A stretch of 64,000 bases of DNA from a virus (Duplodnaviria; Heunggongvirae; Uroviricota; Caudoviricetes): positions 10,223 through 74,222 of the IMG/VR virus record IMGVR_UViG_3300032007_004072; one strand, written 5' to 3'. Under the pieces are notes generated by a model. It was not told the origin of the DNA and did no database searches. It saw nothing but the letters and a program-made list of their open reading frames with translations. Below are positions 12,111-48,154 of the stretch, piece after piece. The stretch's first letter is position 1. The number at the start of each line of letters is the position of its first letter. Made by a program: the position numbers and the translations under genes.

Positions 12111-15100
12111 TTGTCTGCAACACATACAGAAAAGTTAAATATAATTAAAGTACAGCCTACAGATTATTTTATTTCAGATACTTTTAATAACATATTGGAC
12201 GATATTGACTCAAAAGTATTGGGTATAGACCATCTACAAACTGCTTTACATTGGACAGAGTGGGAAGAAAATACTACTTATATAGCTAATGATGTGGTAA
12301 GATGGCCTAATATGAAATCACATCAATATGCTAAATGTATAACTGGTGGTACAAGTGGTGGTATAGAGCCAGGAAATAATGTTACTGGTTCAGTATTAAC
12401 AGAAGGATCAGTTACTTGGAAAGTAATGTCATTAACTGAGGCTACAGATAATTCTGCCCCCATAATGATTTGGCTTGGTGGTGAGATTTATTCTCGTGGA
12501 GATATTGTAATATATGCAAATGCTTTGTATAGGGCAAAAGTAAATCATACAGCTTCTGGTACATTTGAGCCAGATAAGTCAAAGTGGCAAGAGATATATG
12601 CAAGTATTAGACCATGGGTACTGAATAAATTTTACTATGAAGATGATACAGTAATAGTAAATAATGTAATATATAAATGTAATGCAGATCATACTTCTGC
12701 AAGCACATTTACAAATGCTGGAGAAGTTCCTTATTGGGATATTGTAGGTAATTTAGCTAGAGCTTCAGAATGGCATAGTGTAACAAATTATTTAAAAGAT
12801 CAATTAATAACTAAAAATGGTTTATTATATAGAGCAGTTGAAACTCATACTTCAAGTGGTGTATTTACTGATGATACATTAAAGTGGGAGCCAGTATTTG
12901 CAAGTATTATTCCATGGACAAGTAATGCGTGGTATGATCAAGATGTGGTTGTTTATTACAATAATGTGTTATATAAATGTATAGACCCACATGTATCAGG
13001 AGCAAATTTTGATTATTTAAAATGGCAATTATTGCATGATCCAAATGGGTATGTTAGAGATTGGGTAGGTAGTACACACTACTACCAAAATCAACTGGTA
13101 AGACATAATGGTAATTTATATAGATGTAATACTACAAATAATGATGCTTCATTTACTATTGCTAAATGGGATTTACTTACAGACTCAATAAACGATTGGG
13201 TAGGTAGTCGTGATTATGTAGTAGGTCAGTATGTAAATTATAATGGTATTCTATATAAATGTATTACAGCAAATAATGATACTAATTTTACTATTTCTAA
13301 TTGGCAAAAAGTAAGTGGCGGTGGATTAGATCAATGGGAACAAAATACTGATTATATTGTTGGAGATGTAGTAGTATATGCAAATAAGATATATCAGTGT
13401 ACTACTGCACATACGTCTGGAGCAACATTTAATGCTGATTCTGATAAGTGGAATGAAATAAGTGCATGTATTACTAGAATACCAAATTGGGAAGCAAATA
13501 AGGACTATGTTATTGGAGATTTAGTATCTCATGATGCTAAAATTTTTAGGTGTACTACTCCACATACTTCTGAAAGTACTTGGGATGCTACAGAAGAACT
13601 AAATTGGGAAGAACTTTCGCCAACAATAAACGAAATAAGTACATGGACACCTTCTACCGACTATGAAATTGGTCAATTAGTAATACATGATAATAAATTA
13701 TATAGATGTAATACAGACCATACATCTGATTCAACCTCTTTTAATACTGATATTGCTTATTGGGATGCTATTGGTAGTACTGGAATAGATATATGGAGAG
13801 CAAATGAAGCATATACTACTTCAAATGTAGTTATATATAATAATAAAATATACAAATGTAATACAGCACATACAAGTGGCAGTACATTTGATCCAACAAA
13901 ATGGGATGAAATAAGCTCTGCTGATATTGGCTTATGGCAATCATCTACAGATTATAAAGTTGGAAATGTTGTAATAAAAGATAATCAAATATATAGATGT
14001 AAAACATTACATACTTCAGATAGTAGTGATTTTTATACAGACATAGCTAACTGGGACATATTAGATACAAAGTGGCAAGTTAAAGATTGGGTAATTAATA
14101 CCTATTATTTAGAAGGTGAAGTTGTACTTTATAATAATACACCATATAAATGTACAACAGCACATACATCACTTGGAACATTTGAATTAGATAAAGCTGA
14201 TTGGGAACCACTAAGTGCTAATATAAGACAATGGGTAAGTGGAACTACATATAAAGTTGGAGATACTGTAATATATGAAGACCAGTTGTATATTTGTACA
14301 GTTGCTAATAATGATATTGCATTTGAAAGGGCTAAATGGAGACAAGTAAATAAGTGTAGTATAGAAATGTGGAGGGGAGCACCAGACCCAAATGTATTAG
14401 CTTTATTGCATTTTGATAATCCAAATGATAAAGGGTATAATGAATATGGGGATAACTTTGGTATTTCTGATAATCCAGCTCTTGGAGAAGGGAAGTTTGG
14501 GTCAGGAATAGATTTATGTGGTAGATATGGTAATATTTCTAGCCCACAGTATAGTTTTCAGAATGATGAGGTATATACTATAGAATTCTGGATAGTTGCT
14601 ACAGATAGGGGATTTAGTGAGAATGCCCATGTTAGTATTGGAAATATAGGGGGAGTTATTACTTTCCCAATGTATCAAGGATTGAAGGTGTTTTATAGTT
14701 CTCCTTATGAATTTGTGCCAACTAATTTTGTTGGTGGGGTGTGGAATCATATGGCATTTGTTATTTCGCCAACAAAATGTACTACATTTATTAATGGTAA
14801 AAAAGAGTCTACGTCTACAAGAGCAGATAGTTTGCCTATATATTTGTCTATGGGGGATAGACATAGTCAGCGTGACCATGGAGTATTTGGTATTGATGAA
14901 CTTCTTATTACTAAGGGAGAAAAATATATAGATGACTTTGATATACCAACTGAGCCATTTCAAAATCCAAATTATGAAGGTTATAAAAAAGATGATTTAG
15001 TAGTATATGAAGATAAAATATACATAGCATTAGAGGATAATAATGATGTTCAATTCGATAAATCTAAGTGGGTAGAAGTAAGTTCTGCTAATATACAATT

Positions 15101-15746
15101 GTGGGAAACTGATACTTATTATGTTGTAGGCAATAATGTAATATATGATAATCAGACATATAGGTGTATTACAGCACATACATCAGGTACATTTTTAGGA
15201 GATATTTCTAAATGGCAAGTATTAGATACAAACTGGTTAGTAAAAGATTGGGCAGTAGATAAACTGTACTTAAAAGACCAAGTTGTATCTTATAGAGATG
15301 GATTGTGGAAATCTTTAATAACACATGAAAGTATAGCAGATGAGCCGCCAACAGATGCTAAAATATACGAAGCATCAGATAATGTAATAGACGTAGATGA
15401 TACTATTACATTACCATATTCAGAAATAATAGATTTAGGTTCAGTTAAGCATATAACAGACATAGATTATACAGAATCTACTTCTGAAATGTCATTTACA
15501 TATACAATAGAAACAAGTATAGATAATATTACATATGAAAATTGGACAGAAGATGCAGTAAATGCTAAATATATAAAGTTAACTGTAGACTCAGTAAATA
15601 TAGATGTTGGAGCAGTTTCACCAAATGCACATTTAACTGATTTTACTGTTTATGGTGATAGTGATAAATGGATAAAAATAAGTTCTGGTGGTAGTGGTGA
15701 TTTAATATATGCTACTAATTCAGATATAGATAATTTGTTTAACTAA
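12111..15746 (+). CDS. tail fiber / receptor-binding protein (1211 aa) with ~20 tandem ~45-aa repeats (W..x..Y..GDxVxYNxxxYxCxxxHTSxxxFxxxxxxW; CBM5/12-like) and a C-terminal LamG domain
   Basis: Repeats visible by eye throughout the protein. LamG signature: ALLHFDNPND...GKFGSGIDL...YTIEFWIVA. C-terminus ends ...DIDNLFN. Confidence 0.8.
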   Translation: MSATHTEKLNIIKVQPTDYFISDTFNNILDDIDSKVLGIDHLQTALHWTEWEENTTYIANDVVRWPNMKSHQYAKCITGGTSGGIEPGNNVTGSVLTEGSVTWKVMSLTEATDNSAPIMIWLGGEIYSRGDIVIYANALYRAKVNHTASGTFEPDKSKWQEIYASIRPWVLNKFYYEDDTVIVNNVIYKCNADHTSASTFTNAGEVPYWDIVGNLARASEWHSVTNYLKDQLITKNGLLYRAVETHTSSGVFTDDTLKWEPVFASIIPWTSNAWYDQDVVVYYNNVLYKCIDPHVSGANFDYLKWQLLHDPNGYVRDWVGSTHYYQNQLVRHNGNLYRCNTTNNDASFTIAKWDLLTDSINDWVGSRDYVVGQYVNYNGILYKCITANNDTNFTISNWQKVSGGGLDQWEQNTDYIVGDVVVYANKIYQCTTAHTSGATFNADSDKWNEISACITRIPNWEANKDYVIGDLVSHDAKIFRCTTPHTSESTWDATEELNWEELSPTINEISTWTPSTDYEIGQLVIHDNKLYRCNTDHTSDSTSFNTDIAYWDAIGSTGIDIWRANEAYTTSNVVIYNNKIYKCNTAHTSGSTFDPTKWDEISSADIGLWQSSTDYKVGNVVIKDNQIYRCKTLHTSDSSDFYTDIANWDILDTKWQVKDWVINTYYLEGEVVLYNNTPYKCTTAHTSLGTFELDKADWEPLSANIRQWVSGTTYKVGDTVIYEDQLYICTVANNDIAFERAKWRQVNKCSIEMWRGAPDPNVLALLHFDNPNDKGYNEYGDNFGISDNPALGEGKFGSGIDLCGRYGNISSPQYSFQNDEVYTIEFWIVATDRGFSENAHVSIGNIGGVITFPMYQGLKVFYSSPYEFVPTNFVGGVWNHMAFVISPTKCTTFINGKKESTSTRADSLPIYLSMGDRHSQRDHGVFGIDELLITKGEKYIDDFDIPTEPFQNPNYEGYKKDDLVVYEDKIYIALEDNNDVQFDKSKWVEVSSANIQLWETDTYYVVGNNVIYDNQTYRCITAHTSGTFLGDISKWQVLDTNWLVKDWAVDKLYLKDQVVSYRDGLWKSLITHESIADEPPTDAKIYEASDNVIDVDDTITLPYSEIIDLGSVKHITDIDYTESTSEMSFTYTIETSIDNITYENWTEDAVNAKYIKLTVDSVNIDVGAVSPNAHLTDFTVYGDSDKWIKISSGGSGDLIYATNSDIDNLFN

Positions 15747-15761
15747 TGGAGGAATGATAAC

Positions 15762-15989
15762 ATGGCAACTGATTTAAAGAGTTATAAAGGTGCAATAGAA
15801 GCACACGTAGAAAAAGATGCATTAACAGGTAAATATACTGTAAATACTTCTAAATATAGTTCTGGTGTAAAAATTGGTGATGATACTTATGAGTATACGC
15901 CAGAAAGTAGCGGTGGTAGTGAAGAGCCTACTACTGAACCAGAAGAACCAATCACAAATCCTGAAGAGCCTACTGAGGATGGAGAATAA
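15762..15989 (+). CDS. small acidic protein (75 aa) with Pro/Glu/Thr-rich tail
   Basis: ORF with GGAGGAATGA RBS; C-terminus EPTTEPEEPITNPEEPTEDGE. Confidence 0.45.
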   Translation: MATDLKSYKGAIEAHVEKDALTGKYTVNTSKYSSGVKIGDDTYEYTPESSGGSEEPTTEPEEPITNPEEPTEDGE

Positions 15990-15990
15990 T

Positions 15991-16019
15991 TTGACAAAAT
16001 GTTTTAATTATGGTATAAT
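15991..16019 (+). promoter_or_regulatory. sigma-A-like promoter: TTGACA, 17 nt, TATAAT (TGg extended -10)
   Basis: TTGACAaaatgttttaattatggTATAAT. The 21-nt -10 region atggtataatataattagaga is identical to the promoter at 35229. Confidence 0.65.
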
Positions 16020-16042
16020 ATAATTAGAGAGGACAGGAAATA

Positions 16043-16072
16043 AGCCTAACCTTTTGGTTGGGCTTTTATTTA
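16043..16072 (+). terminator. terminator-type hairpin + U-tract in the 5' leader, ~25 nt downstream of the predicted TSS (candidate attenuator / antitermination target)
   Basis: AGCCTAACC-tttt-GGTTGGGCT (9 bp, one G-U) followed by TTTTATTTAT; located between the promoter and the RBS of the 16091 gene. Confidence 0.5.
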
Positions 16073-16090
16073 TATATGGGGTGAAACATA

Positions 16091-16663
16091 ATGGTTTTGC
16101 CAGATGAAATAGAAGATGTACTTATTGGTGGAGGATATGAAAAAATAGAAGTTGACTCCTTAGAAGATTTAGGAGCAATAAAAACCTTAACTTTTGATGA
16201 TAATTTTGGTCATAGAGTAAAATCAATAGGTATACATGATGATTTTTTAATTCTTCCTAGAAAGTTGTATTTAAGACAAAATGTACTAAATGTAACAGAA
16301 AATATTTCAGATAAACTAAATGCAGAAGTAAGATTTGCATTAACTAATGACCTTAAACATTATTATGTTTATTTAAATGGTGAATTTGTGATGTTAAGAG
16401 ATTTTGCAAGAGGAATGCCATTAGGTAAATTAAATGACGTTGATTTTACAAATTGGCAAGGAAATATAGGTGTTGCAGTATATATTGCTGAGATGAAAAG
16501 AGATAAAGAAATAGAAATAAAAGATCTTTTTGTAATAGCTAATAATAAGTATGATATAATAGCTAATGGGGATTATAAAATCAGTTTTAGCACACTGGTA
16601 GATGTAGCTATGGGAGAAATTAGTATTGCTAGTGATGATGATATTGACGCTATGTTTTTATAA
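16091..16663 (+). CDS. hypothetical tail-associated protein (190 aa); C-terminus ...DDDIDAMFL
   Basis: ORF with GGGGTGAAACATA-ATG RBS; shares the C-terminal DIDxMF motif with neighbouring fiber genes. Confidence 0.6.
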   Translation: MVLPDEIEDVLIGGGYEKIEVDSLEDLGAIKTLTFDDNFGHRVKSIGIHDDFLILPRKLYLRQNVLNVTENISDKLNAEVRFALTNDLKHYYVYLNGEFVMLRDFARGMPLGKLNDVDFTNWQGNIGVAVYIAEMKRDKEIEIKDLFVIANNKYDIIANGDYKISFSTLVDVAMGEISIASDDDIDAMFL

Positions 16664-16668
16664 AGAGG

Positions 16669-16866
16669 GTGGTGGTAATGGAGCCTCGTAACCGTTGGAG
16701 TGTTTATAAAAATGTAAAAGATGAGTACATTATTGTTAGAGAAGCACTAGATCATCTGCAAATAGTAACTCCATATTCATACATTCACGCAATACGAGAT
16801 GGAGAGGATTTAGAACCATTTGCAGATATAGCAACAGATGAAGAAGTAGATGATATTTTTAAGTAA
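16669..16866 (+). CDS. small hypothetical protein (65 aa); C-terminus EEVDDIFK
   Basis: ORF with GAGGGTGGTGGTA RBS. Confidence 0.45.
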   Translation: MVVMEPRNRWSVYKNVKDEYIIVREALDHLQIVTPYSYIHAIRDGEDLEPFADIATDEEVDDIFK

Positions 16867-16880
16867 TGGAGGGGAGGTAA

Positions 16881-17309
16881 ATGGCTGTTTATGATGATTT
16901 GATAGATAAAGTCAAACTTGCAAGATTTCATGACAATCTGAAACAAAAAGGCTTGCCATTAAATGATTGGACAACTGGTAACGCATATAAAATTGGATAC
17001 ATTGTAGTTCATAATGGTGAATTATACAGATGCACAGTAGCACATACTGCAAATACAGTTTTTGACAATGACAAGTTCGAGATTTTGAGTTCCAATGCAT
17101 ATAGTGGAGTAGTAATAACAGAATGGGCAGGTTCTACTCAATATCAAGTAGATGATATAGTGCTTGCTAATTATGCGCTTTGGAGATGTATTACTGCTCA
17201 TACATCAGATGTTAGTGATTTCAGTAATGATTCTGCTAATTGGGTAAGAATTACTGGTGATAATATTACTATTGCTGACAATCAAGATATTGACGATATG
17301 TTTAATTAA
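16881..17309 (+). CDS. fiber-family protein (142 aa) with 2-3 'HTS' CBM-like repeats; C-terminus DIDDMFN
   Basis: Repeat motif YRCTVAHTANTVFDNDKF / WRCITAHTSDVSDFSNDSANW; RBS GGAGGGGAGGTAA. Confidence 0.7.
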   Translation: MAVYDDLIDKVKLARFHDNLKQKGLPLNDWTTGNAYKIGYIVVHNGELYRCTVAHTANTVFDNDKFEILSSNAYSGVVITEWAGSTQYQVDDIVLANYALWRCITAHTSDVSDFSNDSANWVRITGDNITIADNQDIDDMFN

Positions 17310-17313
17310 GACT

Positions 17314-17342
17314 TGACAGATGGCTCAATTTATGCTATACTA
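17314..17342 (+). promoter_or_regulatory. sigma-A-like promoter: TTGACA, 17 nt, TATACT
   Basis: cTTGACAgatggctcaatttatgcTATACT. The -10 sits inside the loop of the 17322 terminator hairpin. My hand-indexing may be off by 1 nt in this area. Confidence 0.5.
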
Positions 17343-17368
17343 GATATAGTATGGATTGAGCTTTTTTA
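17322..17368 (+). terminator. intrinsic terminator for the 16881 gene: bipartite hairpin GGCTCAAT..(ATACTA-gata-TAGTAT)..ATTGAGCT + T6
   Basis: 8-bp outer stem plus nested 6-bp stem, followed by TTTTTTATTTAT. Confidence 0.55.
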
Positions 17369-17386
17369 TTTATACACAGAAACGAG

Positions 17387-18103
17387 GTGAGAAATTTGCC
17401 TGATGAAAAAGTAATAGACTTAGATAGATTATCAAGATTTCACGATAATCTAAAATCAAATGGCTTACCATTAAATAATTGGCAAGCCAATAAAAAATAT
17501 AAAGTAGGATATACTGTAATACAAGATGGAAAATTTTATAGATGTAAAACAGAGCATACTTCAACTACAACTTTTGATTCTACAAAATTTGACTTAGTTG
17601 GTGGTAGCGGAGGTACAACTATTTCAGATTGGGCTACAGGAACTACATATTCTGTAGGTGATTTAGTAATACATGATAATAATATATATCAATGTAATAC
17701 TAATCATACTTCAACTACATTTACAGCTGATGCAAGTAAATGGACTTTAATCGGCAATAAAGGTATAGATTTTTATACTATTGGAGAAAGTTATGATGTT
17801 GGAGATATAGTAATATATAGTGGAAATATATATCAATGTACAACTGCACATACAGCAACTTCTACTTTTGATACAACAAAATGGGCAGAAGTAAGTGCTA
17901 GTGAAAATGGAATAAGTGAGTGGCAATCTTCTACTGATTATGCAGTTGATGACATAGTAATGTATCAAGATTGCATTTATAGATGTGATACAGCACACAC
18001 CAGTACTAGTACTTTTGACGATACAAAATTTACACAATTAACATATGATATAGAAGATAATTCTGACTTAATAGAAAGTATATTTGGGGAGGCAGTATTG
18101 TGA
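17387..18103 (+). CDS. fiber-family protein (238 aa) with 5 'HTS' CBM-like repeats; GTG start
   Basis: Repeats YRCKTEHTSTTTFDSTKF, YQCNTNHTSTTFTADASKW, YQCTTAHTATSTFDTTKW, YRCDTAHTSTSTFDDTKF. Confidence 0.7.
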   Translation: MRNLPDEKVIDLDRLSRFHDNLKSNGLPLNNWQANKKYKVGYTVIQDGKFYRCKTEHTSTTTFDSTKFDLVGGSGGTTISDWATGTTYSVGDLVIHDNNIYQCNTNHTSTTFTADASKWTLIGNKGIDFYTIGESYDVGDIVIYSGNIYQCTTAHTATSTFDTTKWAEVSASENGISEWQSSTDYAVDDIVMYQDCIYRCDTAHTSTSTFDDTKFTQLTYDIEDNSDLIESIFGEAVL

Positions 18104-19809
18104 GCAAGTTAGTAACAAATGAAAATTTACAAGCTTATCATGCTGAACTTGCAGAGCATATAAAACTCCTGCAAAGAGGTACAGCATATATCTTAAATGA
18201 TATTGTAAATTATGATGGAAATACTCTAAAATGTACTACAGCTGGAACAACTGCTACTACAAAACCTGATGTATCAGCATTAGATGTAGGAGATACATTA
18301 CCTGATGGAACAGCTGTTTGGACAAGAGTAGACTTAGACAAAAGAGGAATTGATTATTGGGCATCTAGTACTGATTATGCATTAAATGACCAAGTAGTAT
18401 ATAATGATAAAATCTATAAATGCAGTACTGCACATACATCAACAAGTACATTTGATGATACGAAATGGGCAGAAATCAGTGCTGGTGGTGGTGGAGGATT
18501 AGATTATTGGTCATCTTCAACAACTTATGCATTAGATGATGTTGTTATATATAATGATAAGATTTATAGATGTACTACGGCACATACAAGCTCATCTACA
18601 TTTGATGATACAAAATTTACTGAAATTTCAGCAAGCATCAGTGGTGGAGGTAGTATAGATGAATGGACAAGTGGAACAAGCTATTCGTCTGGAGATTTAG
18701 TAATAAATAATAATGTACTGTATAAAGCTAATACTACAACATCAACAACTTGGGTAGATAGTGAATGGGATGTAATAGGAACTACATTTAATTCTACAAG
18801 TACGTATGCACAAAAAATAATAACAAATGTAGTAGCTCCATATGAAATGCTATTACAAGTTGGGGATAGTAATTATTGTAAACCTCCAATAGATGTATTA
18901 AAGAAAACTGGCGGTAGTGATAATGTAACATTAACATTAGAAAACTATAATAATGCGTCAGCATATACTGGTACAAGTGATTTTCTAAAAATAGAAAACA
19001 GTAAAGCTAAACTATATAATTATAAAGAATATCCAATAACTACACAAACATTGTCTACTATTGATATTGGTGTAAGTGATGAAATAGATTTTGATGATTT
19101 TTATGTTGAAGGTGGAGGAAAAAGGTATCTAATAGATTCTAATGATTTAGTAGTAATTCATTTCAATGAATCAGTCATAAACGAAACAGCTTATGCAGAC
19201 CCAGTAGTTAATTCATCTTATAATATAGAGTATGTTGCAGGAAAATTTGATAAAGGTTTATATATAAATGATGATACTAATGCTAATGCAATGATGATTA
19301 GTGATAACAGTTTAATATCTGCTATAAATAGCGCATTGAATAGTGATTTTACTATTGAATTTTGGTTTAAGATTGTTGATAGTAGTTTTAGTGGTACATC
19401 TTTGTCTATATTTTGTGGAAATGGCTATGGTCAATTAAGTTTTTATATTTATAATGGAACAGAATTAAGGGTAGGTAGACATGAAGTATCAAATGATTAC
19501 ATATATAGTGTTACAATGATAGATTATATGGATGAAAATTGGCATCATTTTGCATTTACTAGGAAAAATGGTAATGGAAGTTTATTTATTGACGGTACAT
19601 TAGTTTCTCAAAGATCATGTAGTTTTTATTCAACAAATACAGCATTTAATGTGTTTTGTATGATTCAATATAATACAAGTACTAAATTATGGAATGTTGA
19701 TGAGTTTAGATTTTCTAATGTTTGTAGATATGACACAAATTTTAATGTTCCAGAATATCCATACAGTAACATAATTAATTGTAATATTACCTCATTGGAG
19801 GTGAATTAA
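18100..19809 (+). CDS. tail fiber protein (569 aa): N-terminal 'HTS' repeats + C-terminal LamG domain
   Basis: YKCSTAHTSTSTFDDTKW repeats; LamG signature LVVIHFNES...GKFDKGLYI...FTIEFWFKI. Confidence 0.75.
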   Translation: MSKLVTNENLQAYHAELAEHIKLLQRGTAYILNDIVNYDGNTLKCTTAGTTATTKPDVSALDVGDTLPDGTAVWTRVDLDKRGIDYWASSTDYALNDQVVYNDKIYKCSTAHTSTSTFDDTKWAEISAGGGGGLDYWSSSTTYALDDVVIYNDKIYRCTTAHTSSSTFDDTKFTEISASISGGGSIDEWTSGTSYSSGDLVINNNVLYKANTTTSTTWVDSEWDVIGTTFNSTSTYAQKIITNVVAPYEMLLQVGDSNYCKPPIDVLKKTGGSDNVTLTLENYNNASAYTGTSDFLKIENSKAKLYNYKEYPITTQTLSTIDIGVSDEIDFDDFYVEGGGKRYLIDSNDLVVIHFNESVINETAYADPVVNSSYNIEYVAGKFDKGLYINDDTNANAMMISDNSLISAINSALNSDFTIEFWFKIVDSSFSGTSLSIFCGNGYGQLSFYIYNGTELRVGRHEVSNDYIYSVTMIDYMDENWHHFAFTRKNGNGSLFIDGTLVSQRSCSFYSTNTAFNVFCMIQYNTSTKLWNVDEFRFSNVCRYDTNFNVPEYPYSNIINCNITSLEVN

Positions 19810-21798: not shown

Positions 21799-21897
21799 TT
21801 TTGGTATTTAATAAAAGTTGTATGGAGGAAATATAATGCAATGGAAATTCAATTCTTCTTAATGTTACTACAAGCAGTAGTATGGAGGTGATATAAC

Positions 21898-24198
21898 TTG
21901 AAATTTTCAGCTTTAGCAATATCTCTAGCATCACTAGCAACATTTAATACTGCTTTTGCGCTACCTACTGGTGAAAATATTAGGTCAGGTAGCGCAGATA
22001 TAGCTAGAGATGGTAACTCAATGGTAATAACACAAAATACTAATAGAGTAGCTATTGACTGGAATACTTTTAATGTAGATAGAAATGAATTAGTAAGATT
22101 TAATCAGAATGGTGGAATAGCCTTAAATAGAGTGGTAGGTAATGACCTATCCTCTATTTTTGGCAGAATACAATCTGATGGTACGGTTATACTAATTAAT
22201 CCTAATGGTATTCTTTTTGGCGAAGGTTGCCAAATAGATACTGGAGCATTTATAGCATCTACAAAAAATATTTCAGATGATATAATGACTAATTTTAGTA
22301 TGTCAAATGACCCATTAATTTCTTTTGAGCCTGATGAACACGGTAATATAGTAAATATGAATGGTATAATAAAGGCTGATAAAGTAGAATTAGGTGAAGA
22401 TGGTGAGATTTATCTAAAATCTAGTAATGATGCGTTAATAACAGGCGATACAAAAGTTAATAATTTTATAGTTGTAGGAGAAAATATAAATTTAGAAAAT
22501 GGTACTTTTATATCTACTGGAGATACTAATTTAATATCTAAGGTAGATACTAATATAAATTCTCCTATAACTTCTACAGGAAATCTTATTTTTGGTGCGG
22601 ATTATGATAAAGACTATAAAGGCATGGTTAGTGTAGGTGCTAATATATCTACTGATAAAGATTTAACATTCTATGCACCAACTACTGGTACTTATTTTAA
22701 TTATCCTAGTGGAAAAGGTAATATAAGCGCAAAAGATATTAACTTTTATGGAAATGTAGCCGTAGACAATAGCACTTTAGATATAGATACAGAAAATATA
22801 ACCTTCTATTCAAATATAGACTCAGCAAACTCTTACAATGTATATGAAAATGGTAGCACTTATGGGGCCGATGTAAAAGATGAGCCTGCAATGAAAAGTC
22901 TAGCTAAGTTTTATTATGAAAACTATCTAAAAAATATAGTATATAAAGACTTTGAAAATCTAACTAGTGAAGAATATGCTATTATTAGAGATAGATGCTT
23001 AGATGAATATAAAGGCTATCATAATAGACCATTACCAACTGATGAACAAGAAGCAGTAAAGGCATATTTTAATGAGAATGTAAAGCTAAGTGGTTTAACT
23101 GAAGCTACGGATTTTGATAATTTAACTGATGATCAATATACACAATTAGCTAAACATATACTAACAACATTTGCATATAATAATACTGATAATAGAGAGT
23201 CTATACTAAATATATGGGCAAATGCAGTTAATTCCGCAAAGGAAGGAACTGAAGGTGGAGATGCAGTTGGTGATAAATATTTAGCTACAATAACTGATTC
23301 GCTAGAAAATTGGAGAGTAACTTCCATGCTAAAAGGTAAAAGTTATGAATATTTCCTTGGTGGAAGAACTGATATAGTAGGCAAGAACATTAAAGACAAT
23401 AGAGTATTTAAGTGGTATACAGGAATATCTAAAGATGTAGTATTCTTTACATCAACAGGAGAAGGAGAAGGTATAACACATACATATTCAGCTTGGTCTA
23501 AAGATCCAAATGGAATATTTGGTTATGTGTTTAATGAACCTAATAATAATTCTAATTATGACCAACCATATGTTGCAATAGGTTGGCACGATAATAGTGG
23601 CAACAGTTGGGCAGATGTAGATGATGCTAAAAATACAGTAAGAGGACTTATACAAGAAATAAATAATCCTCGCTCAACAATAAACATAACATATACAGGT
23701 TCGCATGAAGAAAAAGGAAAAGTAGGAGATTCAGTACCTATAACAATAAACTTTAATAAAGTAGAACCTATACCTAAACCTGAACCTAAAGTGTATGAGG
23801 AGTATAGACCAATAGTAGAGCCTATAAGAAAGCCAGTAGACTTAGATTTTGAGATATTAATAATAAAAGAAGTAGATGGTAAGTATTATATGTATGGGGA
23901 ATACTACTTAACAAAGAATGATAGAGAAGTAGATATAGAACTATTAGATAAAAATAGACCACTACCAAAGGTAATAACTGATAGTAGGCTAAGTAAGACT
24001 TCAGTAAACCTTTTAGGTGGAGAGTTTTATATAGATTATGATGGAGTAACATATTCAATAACACCAGCCAATAAAGAAGCAGAAAGAATAGTAGAAGATG
24101 GTGATGCTACTAACAATGAGGATGTTGTAGAAAAAGCATTAGAAACCATCTATGTAGACAACTTAAGATTAATATGCGTACATTTTGGCAGGAGGTGA
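21898..24198 (+). CDS. secreted protein (766 aa): Sec signal peptide, N-terminal TPS / filamentous-haemagglutinin-type (haemagg_act-like) beta-helix domain, large C-terminal region of unknown function
   Basis: Signal peptide MKFSALAISLASLATFNTAFA. TPS hallmarks: NTNRVAIDWNTFNV, LNRVVGNDLSSIFGRIQSDGTVILINPNGILFGEGCQID. TTG start with GGAGGTGAT RBS. Confidence 0.75.
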   Translation: MKFSALAISLASLATFNTAFALPTGENIRSGSADIARDGNSMVITQNTNRVAIDWNTFNVDRNELVRFNQNGGIALNRVVGNDLSSIFGRIQSDGTVILINPNGILFGEGCQIDTGAFIASTKNISDDIMTNFSMSNDPLISFEPDEHGNIVNMNGIIKADKVELGEDGEIYLKSSNDALITGDTKVNNFIVVGENINLENGTFISTGDTNLISKVDTNINSPITSTGNLIFGADYDKDYKGMVSVGANISTDKDLTFYAPTTGTYFNYPSGKGNISAKDINFYGNVAVDNSTLDIDTENITFYSNIDSANSYNVYENGSTYGADVKDEPAMKSLAKFYYENYLKNIVYKDFENLTSEEYAIIRDRCLDEYKGYHNRPLPTDEQEAVKAYFNENVKLSGLTEATDFDNLTDDQYTQLAKHILTTFAYNNTDNRESILNIWANAVNSAKEGTEGGDAVGDKYLATITDSLENWRVTSMLKGKSYEYFLGGRTDIVGKNIKDNRVFKWYTGISKDVVFFTSTGEGEGITHTYSAWSKDPNGIFGYVFNEPNNNSNYDQPYVAIGWHDNSGNSWADVDDAKNTVRGLIQEINNPRSTINITYTGSHEEKGKVGDSVPITINFNKVEPIPKPEPKVYEEYRPIVEPIRKPVDLDFEILIIKEVDGKYYMYGEYYLTKNDREVDIELLDKNRPLPKVITDSRLSKTSVNLLGGEFYIDYDGVTYSITPANKEAERIVEDGDATNNEDVVEKALETIYVDNLRLICVHFGRR

Positions 24199-24536: not shown

Positions 24537-24899
24537 TTGCAATTCATAGCAAATTTAGTAGCTTCAATAATACCGTATCTATTAAGGTTCATGGATAAAC
24601 ATAGTGATGAATACTTAGAAAAATTAAGTAATAAACTTATTAATTTTTTAGATAGTGAGTATAGAGCTACAGTAAAATTTTGTGTAATAAATAAAGAAGG
24701 AAAGCCTCTGCAAAATGTGGAGGCTGGATTTATTATAGAAGATATAGGAAAAGTATATAAAAAAGGTGAAGGAAGTATAATAACTATCACAGGGTTAAGA
24801 GAAGGAAAATATGAATTTGATATTTTTGGTCAGATAATTCATATAGAAATAGAAGATGCAAATACAATAATAGAAAGGATGGTAATTGTGGGTCAATAA
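24537..24899 (+). CDS. hypothetical protein (120 aa) with C-terminal carboxypeptidase-regulatory/transthyretin-like beta-sandwich domain
   Basis: VKFCVINKEGKPLQNVEAGFIIEDIGKVYKKGEGSIITITGLREGKYEFDIF; its stop codon directly abuts the IscB element's left-end hairpin. Confidence 0.5.
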   Translation: MQFIANLVASIIPYLLRFMDKHSDEYLEKLSNKLINFLDSEYRATVKFCVINKEGKPLQNVEAGFIIEDIGKVYKKGEGSIITITGLREGKYEFDIFGQIIHIEIEDANTIIERMVIVGQ

Positions 24900-25140
24900 C
24901 CCACCACCTATAGAGGTGGAAGCTTGGAACCAAGCACTAGTTGACTAGCCTAAGTCTTAATTGACTACGTTATTTTAGTTATTTCACCTATGAATATAGA
25001 TCCTAGTTTGTAGCTCTGAACAGGCTCTGTAAACAGTTCTGATGGGTAGGAACAGTCAACCTGGGGACGGCTTAACATTTAAGCAAGCTATTATAACATT
25101 GGCGAAGGGTCGTGTAACTCAGGAATAGGAGGTAAACTCA
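24900..25140 (+). ncRNA. candidate IscB omega-RNA (structured, GC-enriched ~240-nt non-coding region directly 5' of iscB on the same strand)
   Basis: Several stem-loops (CCACCT-ATAG-AGGTGG; GCTTGG-aa-CCAAGC; ACAG-gct-CTGT; others). GC content is visibly higher than the ~28% background. No ORF. The position upstream of iscB matches the published IscB omega-RNA arrangement. Confidence 0.5.
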
Positions 25141-26403
25141 TTGTTAGTTTATGTACTAAACAAAAATGGTAAACCACTTATGCCTTGTAACCCACAAAAA
25201 GCAAGAAAATTGCTTAAAAGTGGTAGAGCAGAAATATATAAGTATACACCATTTACAATTAAATTAAAATATGGTAGTGCTGGGTATAAACAACCAATAA
25301 CATTAGGTATAGATGCAGGTTCTGTACATATTGGAGCTTCAGCAACTACTGAAAAGAAAGAATTGTATGCGTCAGAGACTATTATGCGCTCTGGTGATGG
25401 TAAGCAAAGTATAGTAAATTTATTATCTACAAGAAAGGAGTTAAGACGTTCTCGTAGAAATAGAAAAACACGTTATAGATCTGCAAGATTTTTAAACAGG
25501 GAAAAACCTAAAGGTTGGCTTGCACCTTCTATAGAAAATAAAATTCATGTACACTTAAAATTAGTTGCTGATATACATAAAATATTACCTATAACTAAAA
25601 TTATAGTGGAAGTTGCTAGTTTTGATATTCAAAAGATTAAAAATCCTAATATAAGCGGAAAGGAATATCAAGAAGGTGATCAGTATGGTTTTGGTAATGT
25701 GAGAGAATATGTATTGTTTAGAGATGATCATAAATGCCAATGCTGTAAGGGAAAATCTAAAGATAAGGTGTTAAATGTCCACCATATTGAGTCTCGTAAA
25801 ACTGGGGGTAATGCTCCAAACAATTTAATTACATTATGTGAGTCTTGCCACAATAAATACCATAAAGGTTTAATAGATTTACCTAAAAATATAAAAAGAG
25901 GTATGTCATTTAAAGACGCTACTTTTATGGGAATAATGAGATGGGCTTTTTATAATAAGTTAAAAGAAATTTATGTTAATGTAAGTTTAACTTATGGTTA
26001 TATTACAAAAGTAAAGCGTATAGAAAATAATATAGAAAAGTCTCATACTACAGATGCTTACTGTATATCAAATAATCTTAAAGCAGAACGGCTTGATTAT
26101 TATTTTCTTAGAAAGCAAGTAAGAAGACATAATCGTAAACTACATAGAGAAGTGCTAACAAAAGGTGGTGTTCGTAAAAGAGCACAAGCAGGACATTTTG
26201 TAAGGGGGTTTTGTTTGCATGATACAGTAGAGTATAATGATAAGTTATGGTTTATTGGAGGATTAAGGCAAAGAGGGTCTTTTGTATTAAAAGATTTATT
26301 TGGAAATAAAGTTGAAAAAGTACCTTCAAAGATTAAATTTTTACAACATAATAATTCTTATTTAGAAAGTGAGGTGAAAGTGGCGTTCTCCTTTATCTTA
26401 TAG
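25141..26403 (+). CDS. iscB: IscB RNA-guided nuclease (420 aa): PLMP N-terminus, RuvC-I, Arg-rich bridge helix, RuvC-II, HNH, RuvC-III
   Basis: VYVLNKNGKPLMPCNPQKARKLLKSGRAEIYKYTPFTIKLKY; LGIDAGSVHIGASA; RRSRRNRKTRYRSARF; IIVEVASF; CQCCKG...VHHIESRKTGGNAPNNLITLCESCHNKYH; HTTDAYCISNN. TTG start 7 nt after AGGAGGT. Confidence 0.85.
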   Translation: MLVYVLNKNGKPLMPCNPQKARKLLKSGRAEIYKYTPFTIKLKYGSAGYKQPITLGIDAGSVHIGASATTEKKELYASETIMRSGDGKQSIVNLLSTRKELRRSRRNRKTRYRSARFLNREKPKGWLAPSIENKIHVHLKLVADIHKILPITKIIVEVASFDIQKIKNPNISGKEYQEGDQYGFGNVREYVLFRDDHKCQCCKGKSKDKVLNVHHIESRKTGGNAPNNLITLCESCHNKYHKGLIDLPKNIKRGMSFKDATFMGIMRWAFYNKLKEIYVNVSLTYGYITKVKRIENNIEKSHTTDAYCISNNLKAERLDYYFLRKQVRRHNRKLHREVLTKGGVRKRAQAGHFVRGFCLHDTVEYNDKLWFIGGLRQRGSFVLKDLFGNKVEKVPSKIKFLQHNNSYLESEVKVAFSFIL

Positions 26404-26428: not shown

Positions 26429-27115
26429 ATGGCACAAATTAAAATACAAACAAAAGATTTAACAGGAGAACCAGTTAAAGAAGCTTCAGTAGTATTTAAT
26501 TTAGAAGGTAAAGGTTTAATAGAAAGAACAACTGATAATTTAGGAAATACTTCAATAAGTGGAATAGAAGTAGGAGTATTACCAGTAACTATAACTAAGA
26601 AAGATTTTACTACACAATCTTTTGTATTAAAAATAATAGATATAGATCAAATAATAAGTAAAGAAGTAGTAATGTTATCAACAGAAAATAAAGAAAAACC
26701 AAAAGAGATAGTAAAAGAAACTGTAAATACAGTAATAGCAGATACTACAAAAGCTATTGTAGATTCTTATGCATTTGTAGAGCCAAAAAATATAGATGAG
26801 GCAAAACAGTGGTATAAAGAATTAGAGAAAAATATAGATGCGCAAAAAGATGTAATAAACACAGCACTAAAAAATGGAGTACATGATGTAGTACAACAAC
26901 AAGCAAGTAACCTAACATATACACTAGGTCAACAGCTAACAGCATCTATACATTGGTATGTAAAGGAAAGAAGTAAACTAGACCCATTAGGTTCATTGGA
27001 AGATTTAGGTAAATGGGCTTCTATGACATCTATGGTCGCGGGACTATTCTTTCTAAGAAGTAGCTTGGTTGAGTATATAAATAAGTTGTTAGAATATATT
27101 AAAAATAAGGTGTGA
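26429..27115 (+). CDS. hypothetical protein (228 aa): N-terminal carboxypeptidase-regulatory-like beta-sandwich domain, coiled middle, C-terminal hydrophobic segment
   Basis: IKIQTKDLTGEPVKEASVVFNLEGKGLIERTTDNLGNTSISGIEVGVLPVTITKKDF; C-terminal MTSMVAGLFFL. Confidence 0.55.
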   Translation: MAQIKIQTKDLTGEPVKEASVVFNLEGKGLIERTTDNLGNTSISGIEVGVLPVTITKKDFTTQSFVLKIIDIDQIISKEVVMLSTENKEKPKEIVKETVNTVIADTTKAIVDSYAFVEPKNIDEAKQWYKELEKNIDAQKDVINTALKNGVHDVVQQQASNLTYTLGQQLTASIHWYVKERSKLDPLGSLEDLGKWASMTSMVAGLFFLRSSLVEYINKLLEYIKNKV

Positions 27116-28134
27116 TATTTTTGCATAAAAGTGTTATAGATATTACAGGACAAAAATTTGGAAGATTGACTGCACTTAGTTATCTTGGTGGTGGGTATTG
27201 GGATTGTGTATGTGATTGTGATCCAGAAAAGCATTTGAGAGTTAATGGTTATAGTTTAAGGAAAGGATTTTCTCAGTCATGTGGATGTTTGAGAAAAGAA
27301 AGACTACATGAAGCTTTATTTATAGATTTAACAGGGCAGACTTTTGGTGAGTGGTATGTTGAATCATATGCAGGATATGAGAAAAGGGCATCTTGGTGGA
27401 ATATAGTTTGTTCTTGTGGTACAAGAAAGAAATTGACTACACAGGCATTGAGAGATGGCATATCAAAATCGTGCGGCTGTAAGAAATCTCAGTATGTATC
27501 AGAGTCAGAAATAACTCATAATATGTCTAGGACAAGATTTTATAGAATTTGGCAAGACATGAAAAATAGATGTAATAATGAAAGTAATTGTGAATATCAT
27601 AATTATGGTGGAAGAGGAATAAAAGTATGTGAAGAATGGAATAATTCATTTATAGCATTTCGTGATGCTATGTATGATGAGTATCAAGAACATGTCGATG
27701 AATATGGAGAAAATGATACATCATTAGACCGTATAGATTATAATGGTAATTATTGTAAGGAAAACTGTCGTTGGGCAACATGTCATGAACAAATACTTAA
27801 TAGAAGAACTTCTTTACGTGTAGAATTTGATGGTAAGATTGACTTAGTATGGGATTTAGCTGAAAGATATGATAAGAGATATGATTTAGTGGCAAGAAGA
27901 CTTAGGGATGGTTGGAATATATATGAAGCATTAGAAATAGTACCTCGTAAGACAAAAAAGAGAAATGGTATAGAGATGTTTGAGCTTGATGGTGTCAAGA
28001 AACCTATATCTTATTGGTGTAAATTATATAACATTGGTAGGCATACGGTTAGACGCAGATTACATAATGGAATGTCTTTTAGGGAAGCATTAGAGACTCC
28101 TAAAGGAACCCGCATAAGTAGTGGAATATCTTAA
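27112..28134 (+). CDS. HNH_3-like homing-endonuclease-family protein (340 aa): N-terminal Zn-ribbon repeats, core R.Y..W..M..RC-x-YHNYGGRGI.VC..W ... LDRID..GNYC.ENCRWAT, C-terminal HTH-like repeats
   Basis: Motifs TRFYRIWQDMKNRCNN, YHNYGGRGIKVCEEW, SLDRIDYNGNYCKENCRWATCHEQILNRR. One of 5 paralogs in this window. Confidence 0.7.
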   Translation: MIFLHKSVIDITGQKFGRLTALSYLGGGYWDCVCDCDPEKHLRVNGYSLRKGFSQSCGCLRKERLHEALFIDLTGQTFGEWYVESYAGYEKRASWWNIVCSCGTRKKLTTQALRDGISKSCGCKKSQYVSESEITHNMSRTRFYRIWQDMKNRCNNESNCEYHNYGGRGIKVCEEWNNSFIAFRDAMYDEYQEHVDEYGENDTSLDRIDYNGNYCKENCRWATCHEQILNRRTSLRVEFDGKIDLVWDLAERYDKRYDLVARRLRDGWNIYEALEIVPRKTKKRNGIEMFELDGVKKPISYWCKLYNIGRHTVRRRLHNGMSFREALETPKGTRISSGIS

Positions 28135-31426: not shown

Positions 31427-31570
31427 GAGTTGATTAAACATGAGAGCAATGTTCTTTTGTATCTTAATAGCTTTTATTGTTATTTGGGCGTATCTATGTT
31501 TTCATTATGGTAAGGAAGTAGGTAGAGAGATAAAGAAATTTTTCAATAAGATTTTTTGAAGGAGTGCATT

Positions 31571-32455
31571 ATGGAAATTAAAAATCTTGGTGCTATTGGA
31601 ATTTTTGTTGGTATGGCAGTATGTACAGTAGGCATGTTTACTTGTGTAAATAGAATTGGCCCTGGATATGCTGGTGTAGTCTACAACATGGACGGTGGTA
31701 TTGAAAACGAAACTTTGTCACAAGGATTTCATATTGTAGCTCCATGGAAACATGTGAGTGAATATCCTATCTCTACTGAAACAGTATATTATACTAAAAA
31801 TACTGTAGACGGTAGTGATAAGGATGATAAGAAGGTAGATAAGAGTGTAAATGTTAATACTAAAGATGGTAAGCAGGTAAACACATCTGTTACTTATGCT
31901 TATCATATGGATGTAGAAAAACTACCTGCTGTTTATGCAAAGTTCAGAGGGCAAAATATTGAGTCAATTCAAAATGGCTACATGAAAAATGCTATGTATG
32001 AAGCACTTAATAATATAACTAGCCAGTATAGTCTGATGGAACTTGTAGGAGATAAACGCCCAGAGATTAATCAAAAGATATTTGAAGCGTTTAGAAATGA
32101 TTTAGAGGAATATGGCATTGTAATTGAAACTTTTAACTTATCTGATGTAGTTCCTGATGAAGCTACTGCAACTGCAATTCAAAATGTTGTGAATGCACAA
32201 AATGAACTCCAACGTGTTCGTATTGAAAAAGAACAAGCTGAAGTTGAAGCTGAAAAAGCTAGAGTTACTGCTAAAGGTAAGGCAGATGCTGCTATTATTG
32301 AAGCTGAAGGTCAAGCACAAGCTAACGCTAAATTGCAAGAATCTTTAACTGAAAATGTATTACGTCAAAGAGCAATAGAAAAATGGAATGGCGAAACTCC
32401 TAAGATTGGTGCAGGAAATAATAGTTTTATTTTGAACGCTGATTTCTTAAAATGA
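31571..32455 (+). CDS. SPFH / band-7 (prohibitin/HflC-like) membrane protein; start trimmed to ATG 31571 after GAAGGAG
   Basis: N-terminal TM; GYAGVVYNMDGGIENETLSQGFHIVAPWKHV; C-terminal EAEKARVTAKGKADAAIIEAEGQAQANAKL...RQRAIEKW. Confidence 0.8.
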   Translation: MEIKNLGAIGIFVGMAVCTVGMFTCVNRIGPGYAGVVYNMDGGIENETLSQGFHIVAPWKHVSEYPISTETVYYTKNTVDGSDKDDKKVDKSVNVNTKDGKQVNTSVTYAYHMDVEKLPAVYAKFRGQNIESIQNGYMKNAMYEALNNITSQYSLMELVGDKRPEINQKIFEAFRNDLEEYGIVIETFNLSDVVPDEATATAIQNVVNAQNELQRVRIEKEQAEVEAEKARVTAKGKADAAIIEAEGQAQANAKLQESLTENVLRQRAIEKWNGETPKIGAGNNSFILNADFLK

Positions 32456-32465
32456 GGTATATATT

Positions 32466-32948
32466 ATGTCAGATATGTTAACTTGGGCAGAAGAAGAACT
32501 TAAAAGATATAACTTTGATTTCTATGACGATAATATGAACAAAGCTGTATTAGAGGTTATAAAAACACTTGTAGATCAAGGACATACTAATATGTCAGCT
32601 TCTATTGTAATTACACTTGTAGATAGGCTTTGGAGTTGGAAACCTTTAACTCCATTAACTGGAGAAGAGGATGAGTGGTCAGATATATTAGATCCTGATG
32701 GCAATACACGGCAAAATAAAAGATATTCAGCAGTATTCAAAAATAAAGAAACTGGAGAATGTTATGATGTAGAAGGTAGAATTTTTGCTGAACCAGATGG
32801 GGTTAAATTTACCTGTAGAGAATCAAGAGTTCCAGTAGAATTTCCATACATGCCACCAGATAAGTATCCAGTGTATAAACTTAAATATAGTTCAGATGAA
32901 AAATCAGTAGAGGAACAGCTAAAAGATAATGAATATGAAATTGTATAG
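32466..32948 (+). CDS. hypothetical protein (160 aa)
   Basis: ORF tiled after the SPFH gene. Confidence 0.55.
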   Translation: MSDMLTWAEEELKRYNFDFYDDNMNKAVLEVIKTLVDQGHTNMSASIVITLVDRLWSWKPLTPLTGEEDEWSDILDPDGNTRQNKRYSAVFKNKETGECYDVEGRIFAEPDGVKFTCRESRVPVEFPYMPPDKYPVYKLKYSSDEKSVEEQLKDNEYEIV

Positions 32949-33517: not shown

Positions 33518-33581
33518 ATTGCCACAAACTACTTGCAATTATTTCTTACATATGTTACAATATAATTAGGAGGTGAGAATT

Positions 33582-39101: not shown

Positions 39102-39752
39102 ATGAATTACCATATTGGAGAAAGAATTGGTAAGCTTACTATTATAGGTGTTAGGTATAAAAAGGGTGAACGTACAAAAATGATTTGTGAGTGTGAATGT
39201 GGAGGATTTAAGACTGTTAGCTATAGCCATTTAAGTAGTGGTATGGTAAAGTCTTGTGGATGTTTAAAGCATAGTGGTTATACATCTACACATGGAATGA
39301 CAGGTACTAGATTTTATCATATTTATCATGATGCAAAAAGACGTTGTACTTCTCCTAAATGTATTGGGTATGAAAATTACGGTGGACGAGGTATAAAAGT
39401 TGAGTGGAATACATTTGAAGAATTTATGTCTGATATGTATGAAAGTTATCAAGTACATGTAGAAGAATTTGGTGAGAAGGAGACTACGTTAGACAGGATT
39501 GATGTAGATGGGAATTATTGTAAAGAAAATTGTAGGTGGACTACACATTTAAAGCAGGGAAATAATACAAGAAGAAATCACTATATAACTATAGACGGTA
39601 TTACAAAAACTGCTAAAGAGTGGTGGCGAGAATGCGGAAAGGTAGCTTATCAAACTTTTATTAGTCGTATAAATGATTTTGGTTGGGAGCCTATAAAAGC
39701 ACTCACAACTCCACCAAAACCAATAGGCAATAATGTATATAAGAAGGATTAA
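39102..39752 (+). CDS. HNH_3-like homing-endonuclease-family protein (216 aa; one Zn-ribbon module + core)
   Basis: TRFYHIYHDAKRRCTSPKCIGYENYGGRGIKVEWNTFEEF...TLDRIDVDGNYCKENCRWTTHLKQGNNTRRN. Confidence 0.7.
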   Translation: MNYHIGERIGKLTIIGVRYKKGERTKMICECECGGFKTVSYSHLSSGMVKSCGCLKHSGYTSTHGMTGTRFYHIYHDAKRRCTSPKCIGYENYGGRGIKVEWNTFEEFMSDMYESYQVHVEEFGEKETTLDRIDVDGNYCKENCRWTTHLKQGNNTRRNHYITIDGITKTAKEWWRECGKVAYQTFISRINDFGWEPIKALTTPPKPIGNNVYKKD

Positions 39753-48125: not shown

Positions 48126-48154
48126 TTGACAAAGGCTTAAAAATATGTTATACT
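48126..48154 (+). promoter_or_regulatory. sigma-A-like promoter: TTGACA, 17 nt, TATACT (TGt extended -10)
   Basis: cTTGACAaaggcttaaaaatatgtTATACT. Confidence 0.6.

Follow-up and report, generated by a model that had tools for sequence, protein, structure and literature searches.

A phage-borne orphan TpsA-family exoprotein with a C-type lectin-like domain, possibly exported through a host two-partner secretion transporter

In a 64,000-nucleotide stretch of a tailed-phage genome (IMG/VR record IMGVR_UViG_3300032007_004072, positions 10,223 to 74,222; hereafter the window), we analyzed a gene for a predicted Sec-exported protein that belongs to the TpsA passengers of two-partner secretion (TPS) and is accompanied by no gene for a TpsB transporter. 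The reading towards which we lean, with modest confidence, is that of a mobile, moron-like orphan TpsA that would be exported by Sec together with a TpsB of the host and would act as a lectin or adhesin on the surface of the infected cell. A wider proposition is advanced more tentatively, as plausible though a little short of probable: that two unrelated lineages of large rumen phages have long kept a type V passenger dependent on host TpsB, displaying a phage lectin on the surface of a diderm Firmicute, and that this is the first TPS passenger supplied by a virus.

The open reading frame (ORF) of 766 amino acids had been picked out earlier by a model reading the letters alone (hereafter the sequence-only reading), and it is present with exactly the coordinates then given, 21898–24198 on the plus strand, with a TTG start, a stop codon within that range, and a good ribosome-binding site (RBS) upstream. 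Its N-terminus (MKFSALAISLASLATFNTAFA, followed by LPTG) shows the n/h/c layout of a Sec-type signal peptide, with Lys2, a 14-residue hydrophobic core at residues 3–16 (Kyte–Doolittle hydropathy ~1.9), and Ala-Phe-Ala at positions −3 to −1. The core is the sole hydrophobic segment of the protein, and Ala21 and Pro23 are invariant in the family alignment, all of which upholds the signal peptide first read from the letters. The TPS (haemagg_act) domain proposed to follow it was likewise recovered, with Pfam PF05860 matching residues 22–211 (E = 7e-25; 88.8 bits, cutoff 33.5) and NCBIfam TIGR01901 scoring 71.2 bits (cutoff 29.1). The AlphaFold2 (AF2) model forms a beta-helix over residues 20–317 with a predicted local distance difference test score (pLDDT) above 90, and in a Foldseek search of this model against the PDB all significant matches (the nine best) were TpsA secretion domains, namely those of EtpA, HMW1, HxuA, and FHA (E 1e-8 to 7e-3). 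No tail-spike fold was found among the PDB matches of the beta-helix model, so that the ordinary tail-spike beta-helix, which the sequence-only reading had named as the outcome that would speak against it, did not appear. Moreover, the motif NPNGI is found at residues 101–105 (nt 22198–22212). By domain profile and predicted fold, the phage protein is a true TpsA-family passenger, one of type Vb secretion.

For the C-terminal 450 amino acids a search for a hydrolase fold had been suggested, and none was found there by Pfam scan or by fold search of the lectin region; instead, a helical region is followed by a C-type lectin-like domain, then by a Pro-rich linker, and lastly by a conserved C-terminal module. 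Since the full-length AF2 model was poor beyond residue 320, the lectin region was modeled separately (residues 412–625) from a deeper domain alignment of matches in a representative protein library, which gave a predicted template-modeling score of 0.70. All 50 of the top 50 PDB matches of this domain model in Foldseek were C-type lectin domains (probability 0.7–1.0; TM-score to target 0.43–0.61). Across the family, the central region has a consensus (W..A..AA..G..YLATITT.LEN ... F.W.TGPEG ... Y..W...EPNN...YVAVG...WDDV...GFVQE) that is also C-type-lectin-like and lacks cysteines. The family profile gave weak matches in the PDB (E 0.1–3), and those to conglutinin, mannose-binding protein A (MBP-A), and aggrecan (E 0.1–1) fall exactly on the EPNN..W.D motif. 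In the phage protein, EPN stands at residues 547–549, with Pro548 invariant in the family, and residues 477–620 contain no cysteine. At the corresponding position, Pfam Lectin_C (E 1e-6) is found in P0152, a distantly related TpsA that shares the C-terminal module. We use the term lectin-like because Pfam Lectin_C (PF00059) gave no match at E ≤ 1 on the phage protein itself; from its motifs and modeled fold, the domain may bind sugar.

The helical region is conserved in TpsA proteins of Selenomonas, and the C-terminal module also ends other TpsA proteins and occurs in short, possibly fragmentary, proteins. In the library, which holds 1.84 billion representatives, the C-terminal part had 31 relatives, among which the central region and the last ~120 amino acids were found independently of each other and are therefore separate modules. 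The Pro-rich linker (23758–23841), 28 amino acids long here, is expanded to several hundred residues of PxxP-type repeats in the phage copies P0002, P0006, and P0007, so that the distance the C-terminal module can span from the lectin head differs greatly between copies. The gene was also considered as the target of a diversity-generating retroelement, whose variable protein has a C-type lectin fold, and this was rejected: no repeat family touches 21898–24198, there is no template/variable repeat pair, and no reverse transcriptase occurs among the scanned ORFs.

Relatives of the TpsA gene were found in nine other phage loci, which represent three unrelated contexts and two phage lineages with genomes of ~199 kb and 217–354 kb, respectively; one locus (L003) is a short copy of another (L002). 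In the closest relative (L015, 95% identity) and in a fragment (L005), the arrangement is that of the window, with tail-fiber genes, TpsA, and a 112-aa gene in this order, and in L015 only an 18-nt gap separates the tail-fiber genes from the co-oriented TpsA gene. Two further contigs, L016 and L021, belong to the same lineage as the window and have many genes in common with it at 50–98% identity; their TpsA gene lies in the replication module, between a gene of 246 amino acids and a conserved promoter. At the corresponding place in the window, the conserved promoter (48126–48154) directly follows the 246-aa gene with no TpsA between them. In four contigs of 217–354 kb (L002, L004, L017, and L018), with genes for gyrase and for the beta subunit of a phage RNA polymerase, the TpsA gene comes after gyrA, directly behind a strong intrinsic terminator. 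Occurring in three unrelated contexts, the TpsA gene is therefore not a fixed tail or lysis component. Its position varies among related phages, it is preceded by a terminator in the 217–354 kb contigs, and in L016 it is wedged between a gene end and a promoter, as is typical of morons. Among the roles offered by the sequence-only reading, a moron adhesin is the best fit.

Between the window and L015, the TpsA genes differ by 39 nonsynonymous and 58 synonymous changes (dN/dS 0.17), with dN/dS of 0.19 in the TPS domain and 0.06 in the lectin domain, and with zero nonsynonymous against three synonymous changes in the signal peptide. This substitution pattern shows the gene to be functional and under purifying selection, signal peptide included. 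In a neighbor-joining tree, the phage copies form one clade, apart from all cellular copies, with two subclades that correspond to the two phage lineages. The GC content of the gene equals that of the phage (31%), which therefore indicates an old acquisition. No homologue was found by tblastn of TpsA against 50,697 GenBank phage records, and PHROGs assigned the protein to no family. Collectively, TpsA is a long-maintained phage gene family and not a recent accidental capture.

Outside phages, the central signature of the family was found, among one genome per species of 185,579 species, only in rumen Selenomonas, apart from one 3-kb fragment, and the nearest cellular cluster in a large protein collection is also named Selenomonas. 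This genus is a diderm Firmicute and is abundant in the rumen. The TpsA of S. caprae (P0009; VTOZ01000004.1, with its TpsB at L001:8152–9849) is homologous to the phage protein almost from end to end, with identities of 50% over residues 1–133, 44% over residues 202–594, and 24% over residues 614–752; relative to it, the phage protein is missing ~320 amino acids of the beta-helix and another segment that precedes the C-terminal module. Every cellular copy directly follows a TpsB gene (POTRA_2 plus ShlB), which is mostly preceded by a CAP-domain gene. In a cellular locus of 48% GC (L020, 5997–18440), two TpsA genes, of 1295 and 2004 aa, stand behind a single TpsB gene, a natural example of transporter sharing in this TpsA family. 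By contrast with the cellular copies, no TpsB was found in the window or in the other phage loci, up to 10 kb on each side where the contig allows, by tblastn, phmmer, and hidden Markov model searches with --max (best E 0.8); L021 was checked through its Pfam gene table alone. Nor was a Selenomonas-type TpsB found in IMG/VR by a narrow scan with two peptide patterns, derived from an alignment of Selenomonas TpsB proteins. For Negativicutes, all three types of type V secretion system have been predicted (PMC4793230), and there are documented cases of a TpsB transporter with more than one TpsA (PMC5422565; PMC10449530).

The tail-tip module of the window points to the same side of the bacterial world. 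Its gpJ-like protein has 769 relatives in cultured phages; the ten host genera recorded most often, which account for 657 of these 769 records, all belong to the Proteobacteria, and 60 of 60 relatives sampled evenly down the ranking were from phages of Proteobacteria. From the cellular homologues and these tail-tip relatives we infer a diderm, Selenomonas-like host. The sequence-only reading had spoken of a low-GC host, and the premise that low GC means no outer membrane is unsupported: the TpsB-paired homologues, all in diderm Selenomonas, and the Proteobacteria phages found with the tail-tip protein argue against it.

The export and action of the phage TpsA may be pictured as follows. The infected cell would synthesize the protein, in this phage probably along with the late tail-fiber transcript, and would export it by Sec, with signal peptidase cutting after AFA21. 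In the periplasm, the TPS domain would be recognized by the POTRA domains of a host TpsB, presumably the chromosomal partner of a homologous Selenomonas-type TpsA. TpsA would then be threaded through the TpsB barrel and fold on the far side, where its short beta-helix stalk would bear the helical region and the lectin-like head, while the C-terminal module may hold it on the cell. The phage would thus probably rely on a host transporter to display its protein at the cell surface, where it would bind glycan. As its role we prefer adhesion or aggregation of the infected cell where hosts are dense, because the phage copy retains every module of the presumed cellular adhesin and because the lectin head is its most constrained part; with the same mechanism, it might alternatively cover glycans at the surface, which would hinder superinfection and keep progeny from being lost on debris.

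Several observations weigh against export through a host TpsB and the lectin function proposed with it. The first TPS motif (NPNL) is degenerate, reading NQNG at residues 69–72, and is likewise degenerate across the whole Selenomonas/phage family. Many TpsA–TpsB pairs are specific, and a TPS domain of 50% identity need not be recognized by a Selenomonas TpsB. The scan of IMG/VR for TpsB used only two peptide patterns, and the ~135 kb of the genome that lie outside the window could encode a TpsB or another Omp85 protein. As to the lectin, the fold matches have modest E-values (~1e-2), Lectin_C is missed as described above, and the WND motif reads WAD at residues 571–573 (WDD in distant relatives). 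The position of the gene directly after tail-fiber genes in the window would suit a structural role too. The 16 spacers of the type I-E CRISPR array of S. caprae gave only chance matches of 11–14 nt to the phage, and the remaining adverse points, which concern base composition, binning, and NrdD, are those that speak for a host of another kind.

According to this alternative, the host would be a low-GC Firmicute of the monoderm type, such as a member of the rumen Erysipelotrichaceae, from which TpsA would be secreted by Sec to the medium or cell wall, with the TPS domain serving only as the N-terminal cap and folding nucleus of the beta-helix. The phage loci have 31–32% GC, nearer to low-GC Firmicutes, in contrast to 48–53% in the Selenomonas loci; the 3-kb fragment L005 (88% identity) was binned to a metagenome-assembled genome (MAG) of a rumen Erysipelotrichaceae; NrdD, on the whole uninformative as to the host, shows a flat ~65% identity to metagenome proteins without any affinity to Selenomonas, its best named cellular relative being in a Lachnospiraceae MAG (65%); and a host without an outer membrane would agree with the absence of TpsB from every phage locus. 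Against these stand the cellular homologues, all TpsB-paired in diderm Selenomonas, the tail-tip relatives, which in every record seen come from phages of outer-membrane hosts, and the TPS domain, which with its NPNGI is conserved under purifying selection in both phage lineages. Moreover, little weight attaches to how an AT-rich contig of 3 kb was binned, and large GC gaps between phage and host are known, as for phiKZ and Pseudomonas. We regard a monoderm host as unlikely.

Lower still do we place the possibility that TpsA is a virion component, that is, a beta-helical tail spike or fiber accessory, adhesin or depolymerase, in which the N-terminal hydrophobic segment does not serve export. 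Its best argument is the position of the gene behind co-oriented tail-fiber genes in the window and, after 18 nt, in L015, and receptor-binding proteins often contain lectin and beta-helix domains. Against it stand the copies in the replication module (L016 and L021) and after gyrA behind a terminator (the four 217–354 kb contigs), and the signal peptide, which shows no amino-acid change against L015. TpsA secretion domains, and no tail spikes, make up the significant fold matches, the cellular homologues are TpsB-linked exoproteins, and the protein has no virion-attachment domain, no PHROG structural family, and no homologue in the GenBank phage records searched. The tail spike or depolymerase of the sequence-only reading is therefore not supported.

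A part in lysis was the last of its suggestions, and here TpsA would be a ShlA/HpmA-like cytolysin that disrupts the outer membrane and, with small membrane proteins encoded downstream, replaces endolysin and spanin. Some TpsA proteins are indeed pore-forming cytolysins (PMC5422565), the gene adjoins two small genes, one with an N-terminal transmembrane (TM) segment, and a glucosaminidase gene lies ~3 kb downstream of TpsA in the 217–354 kb contigs. As noticed before, no endolysin was recognized in the window by Pfam scans of ORFs of at least 100 aa; this carries little weight because the window is 64 kb of a ~199-kb genome, less than one-third of it. The closer fold matches are those to adhesin-type TPS domains, at E 1e-8, with HpmA reaching E 0.1 at best, and the passenger is a lectin-like domain, with neither a pore-forming region nor a hydrolase. 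The following 112-aa gene, which had been called holin-like, matches no holin family in Pfam or NCBIfam and belongs to PHROG 4105 of 'unknown function'; with its single N-terminal TM segment it stands beside TpsA elsewhere solely in L015 and L005, and the flanking small membrane genes accompany TpsA only in the closest relatives of this phage. A lysis factor is thus very improbable. Equally little can be said for a CdiA-like toxin of contact-dependent inhibition (CDI) that would be delivered to neighboring bacteria and have the C-terminal module as its toxic part: CDI is itself a form of TPS (PMC5422565), and the module is separable and occurs also in short, possibly fragmentary, proteins, but the protein has no VENN/pretoxin motif or toxin family, the module is conserved between phage and cellular copies and not polymorphic, no downstream immunity-like gene is common to the three phage contexts, and 766 aa is far below the size of CdiA.

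The features of the gene and the promoters of the window are listed in Table 1.

Table 1 Coordinates of the TpsA gene, its predicted parts, and its context in the window
Feature	Position (nt)	Strand	Basis or remark
RBS GGAGGTG	21884..21890	+	7 nt 5' of TTG start
TpsA gene, whole (766-aa orphan TpsA-family exoprotein)	21898..24198	+	Profiles, database relatives
Predicted Sec-type signal peptide, residues 1–21, cleavage between AFA and LP	21898..21960	+	Hydropathy, conservation, substitution pattern
Predicted TPS secretion domain and short right-handed beta-helix stalk, residues 22–317	21961..22848	+	Pfam, NCBIfam, AF2, Foldseek
Helical region, residues ~325–476	22870..23325	+	AF2 secondary structure, pLDDT 60–85; 44% identity block with S. 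caprae TpsA
Cysteine-free C-type lectin-like domain, residues ~477–592	23326..23673	+	AF2, Foldseek, weak profile matches, relative P0152
Short beta segment, residues 593–620, and Pro-rich linker, residues 621–648	23674..23841	+	AF2, alignment
Conserved C-terminal module, residues ~649–766	23842..24195	+	Comparison with other TpsA proteins; AF2 low confidence
Context: 112-aa gene, one N-terminal TM segment	24185..24523	+	Overlaps TpsA stop by 14 nt
Context: nearest upstream conserved consensus promoter, TTGACA-N17-TATACT	17313..17341	+	
Near-consensus promoters, start positions	5895, 12032, 15991, 17313, 28199, 30811, 35229, 39804, 47245, 48126, 53520, 54571, 57840		

In the gap upstream of TpsA (21799–21897) no consensus promoter was found, and the gene is probably co-transcribed with the tail-fiber genes from the promoter at 17313. 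A generic scan for sigma-70 promoters and terminators around the gene gave the background level of AT-rich DNA (49 sites against 39.5 expected); the conserved promoter family derived from repeats was more informative. The RBS element GAGGTGATATAA accompanies the TpsA gene in L015 and L016. A duplicate of the TpsA RBS region (GTATGGAGGAAATATAATG) with a mini-ORF of eight codons (MQWKFNSS) is found at 21817–21865, 60 nt 5' of the real start; L015 has neither and shows its 18-nt gap instead. This duplicate may be a recombination scar of a cassette junction.

All genes of the window lie on one strand, with 31% GC. The identical TpsA protein occurs on independent assemblies of 199,097 and 199,041 bp, and the genome is therefore probably ~199 kb. 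The genes upstream of TpsA are tail-fiber-like by PHROGs, in agreement with the earlier placement of the gene at the end of a tail-fiber module. The window further contains a siphovirus-type tail-tip module (DUF2460, BR0599, and the gpJ-like protein) and genes for the anaerobic ribonucleotide reductase NrdD/NrdG, PolA, a DnaB-like helicase, and primase. A ~50-aa repeat (Y..GD.V.YN...Y.C..AHT) occurs at least 14 times in the tail-fiber genes at 12488–18740, over four ORFs, and by eye resembles small carbohydrate-binding modules. The 13 near-consensus promoters of the window (TTGACA-N17-TATAAT or TATACT, mostly with the extended −10 TG), several of them in conserved families of ~40–50 nt, precede structural and replication genes alike and suggest heavy reliance on the primary sigma factor of the host.

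Several mobile or accessory genes were also recognized in the window. An intact OMEGA element (24892–26403) lies ~700 nt 3' of the TpsA gene and comprises a HEARO/omega RNA (Rfam RF02033) at 24892–25117 (125 bits, gathering threshold 83) and a gene for an IscB RNA-guided nuclease at 25141–26403 (NCBIfam guided_IscB, 382 bits against 175). It is missing at the same spot in the 95%-related L015 and is therefore a recent insertion. A TnpB gene (IS605 OrfB/Cas12f-like TNB) is located at 33573–34691, and L015 has a different TnpB-like gene (28% identity) at another position; the phage lineage carries several mobile elements with RNA-guided nucleases (the IscB element and TnpB). Five paralogous genes of 216–397 aa with Cys-rich N-terminal parts (27112–28134, 39102–39752, 46068–47261, 55689–56717, and 59828–60670) all contain the DNA-level repeat family D3, four of them also D9 (27112, 46068, 55689, and 59828), and three have a weak PVL_ORF50-like C-terminus (27112, 46068, and 59828). 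They may be homing-endonuclease-like selfish genes scattered in the genome; in L016, a homologue lies ~0.9 kb 5' of TpsA with one 247-aa gene between them. The PolA gene of L021 (10967–13546) contains an intein with a LAGLIDADG endonuclease, and that of the window (51044–53449, 801 aa) shows no intein domain. A Tad3-family inhibitor of type I Thoeris is encoded at 32466–32948 (Pfam PF25185, E 3e-30), which implies Thoeris defense in the host population. At 31556–32455 lies a gene, conserved in L015, for a membrane protein of the SPFH/Band-7 (HflK/HflC-like) family that has an N-terminal TM segment and likely acts at the host membrane.

Two-partner secretion has so far been treated as a purely bacterial two-gene system, and we found no report of a phage-encoded TpsA in open-access papers on TPS or filamentous hemagglutinin together with phages, surveys of jumbo phages included. 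If the preferred reading is true, viruses can plug their own cargo into an outer-membrane transporter of the host, and phages would thereby have a novel means of altering the infected cell's exterior, by adhesion or aggregation or by masking of glycan receptors. The phage TpsA and a Selenomonas TpsB would make a simple pair for testing both TpsB specificity and surface remodeling. The analysis also flags an uncharacterized adhesin family in Selenomonas that combines a TPS domain with a cysteine-free C-type lectin head, offers a clue to the host of uncultured rumen phages of ~199 kb and 217–354 kb, and corrects the shortcut from low GC to a Gram-positive host.

Among known systems, the closest relatives of the phage protein are the chromosomal TpsA/TpsB pairs of Selenomonas, annotated as uncharacterized 'filamentous hemagglutinin N-terminal domain-containing proteins'. 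The order of modules is the same (signal peptide, TPS domain, beta-helix, helical region, lectin-like domain, and C-terminal module), with 44–50% identity in the conserved blocks, whereas the phage copy is ~400–900 aa shorter, has no adjacent TpsB or CAP-domain gene, has 31% GC in contrast to ~50%, and falls into a separate phage-only clade. By domain and fold, the phage protein is a TpsA, though not by the operon, which contains no cognate TpsB. The closest characterized folds are those of EtpA (8cpk), HMW1 (2odl), HxuA (4i84), and FHA/FhaB (1rwr), with which it has in common the N-terminal TPS beta-helix, an NPNGI-type motif, and, presumably, export by Sec and an Omp85-family TpsB. These four are encoded on chromosomes or plasmids of Proteobacteria and not by phages, with the cognate TpsB in the operon, and have much longer beta-helical passengers; to our knowledge, none of them carries a C-type lectin-like head.

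Use of a non-dedicated TpsB is exemplified by Bordetella FhaS, which is secreted via FhaC, by Neisseria TpsA proteins that use a promiscuous TpsB, and by Burkholderia BcpB with its relaxed specificity (PMC5422565; PMC10449530). The phage TpsA would resemble these cases in relying on a transporter encoded elsewhere, and would differ in that the passenger comes from a virus and not from the same bacterial genome. Phage T5 provides a parallel in Llp, an exported lipoprotein that blocks FhuA and whose gene adjoins that of the receptor-binding protein. The two have in common a Sec-type signal and a gene position beside receptor-binding or tail-fiber genes, and surface action during infection, known for Llp, would be a further likeness; Llp is a small lipoprotein and not a type V passenger, and receptor masking is only one of the roles envisaged for the phage TpsA. 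Finally, the type Ve proteins intimin and invasin have passengers tipped by a C-type lectin-like domain (PMC3008723, PMC6714894). They are inverse autotransporters with an Ig-like stalk and a fused barrel and have no sequence relationship to the phage TpsA, which would nevertheless resemble them as a type V passenger that carries a C-type lectin-like domain distally on a stalk for adhesion.

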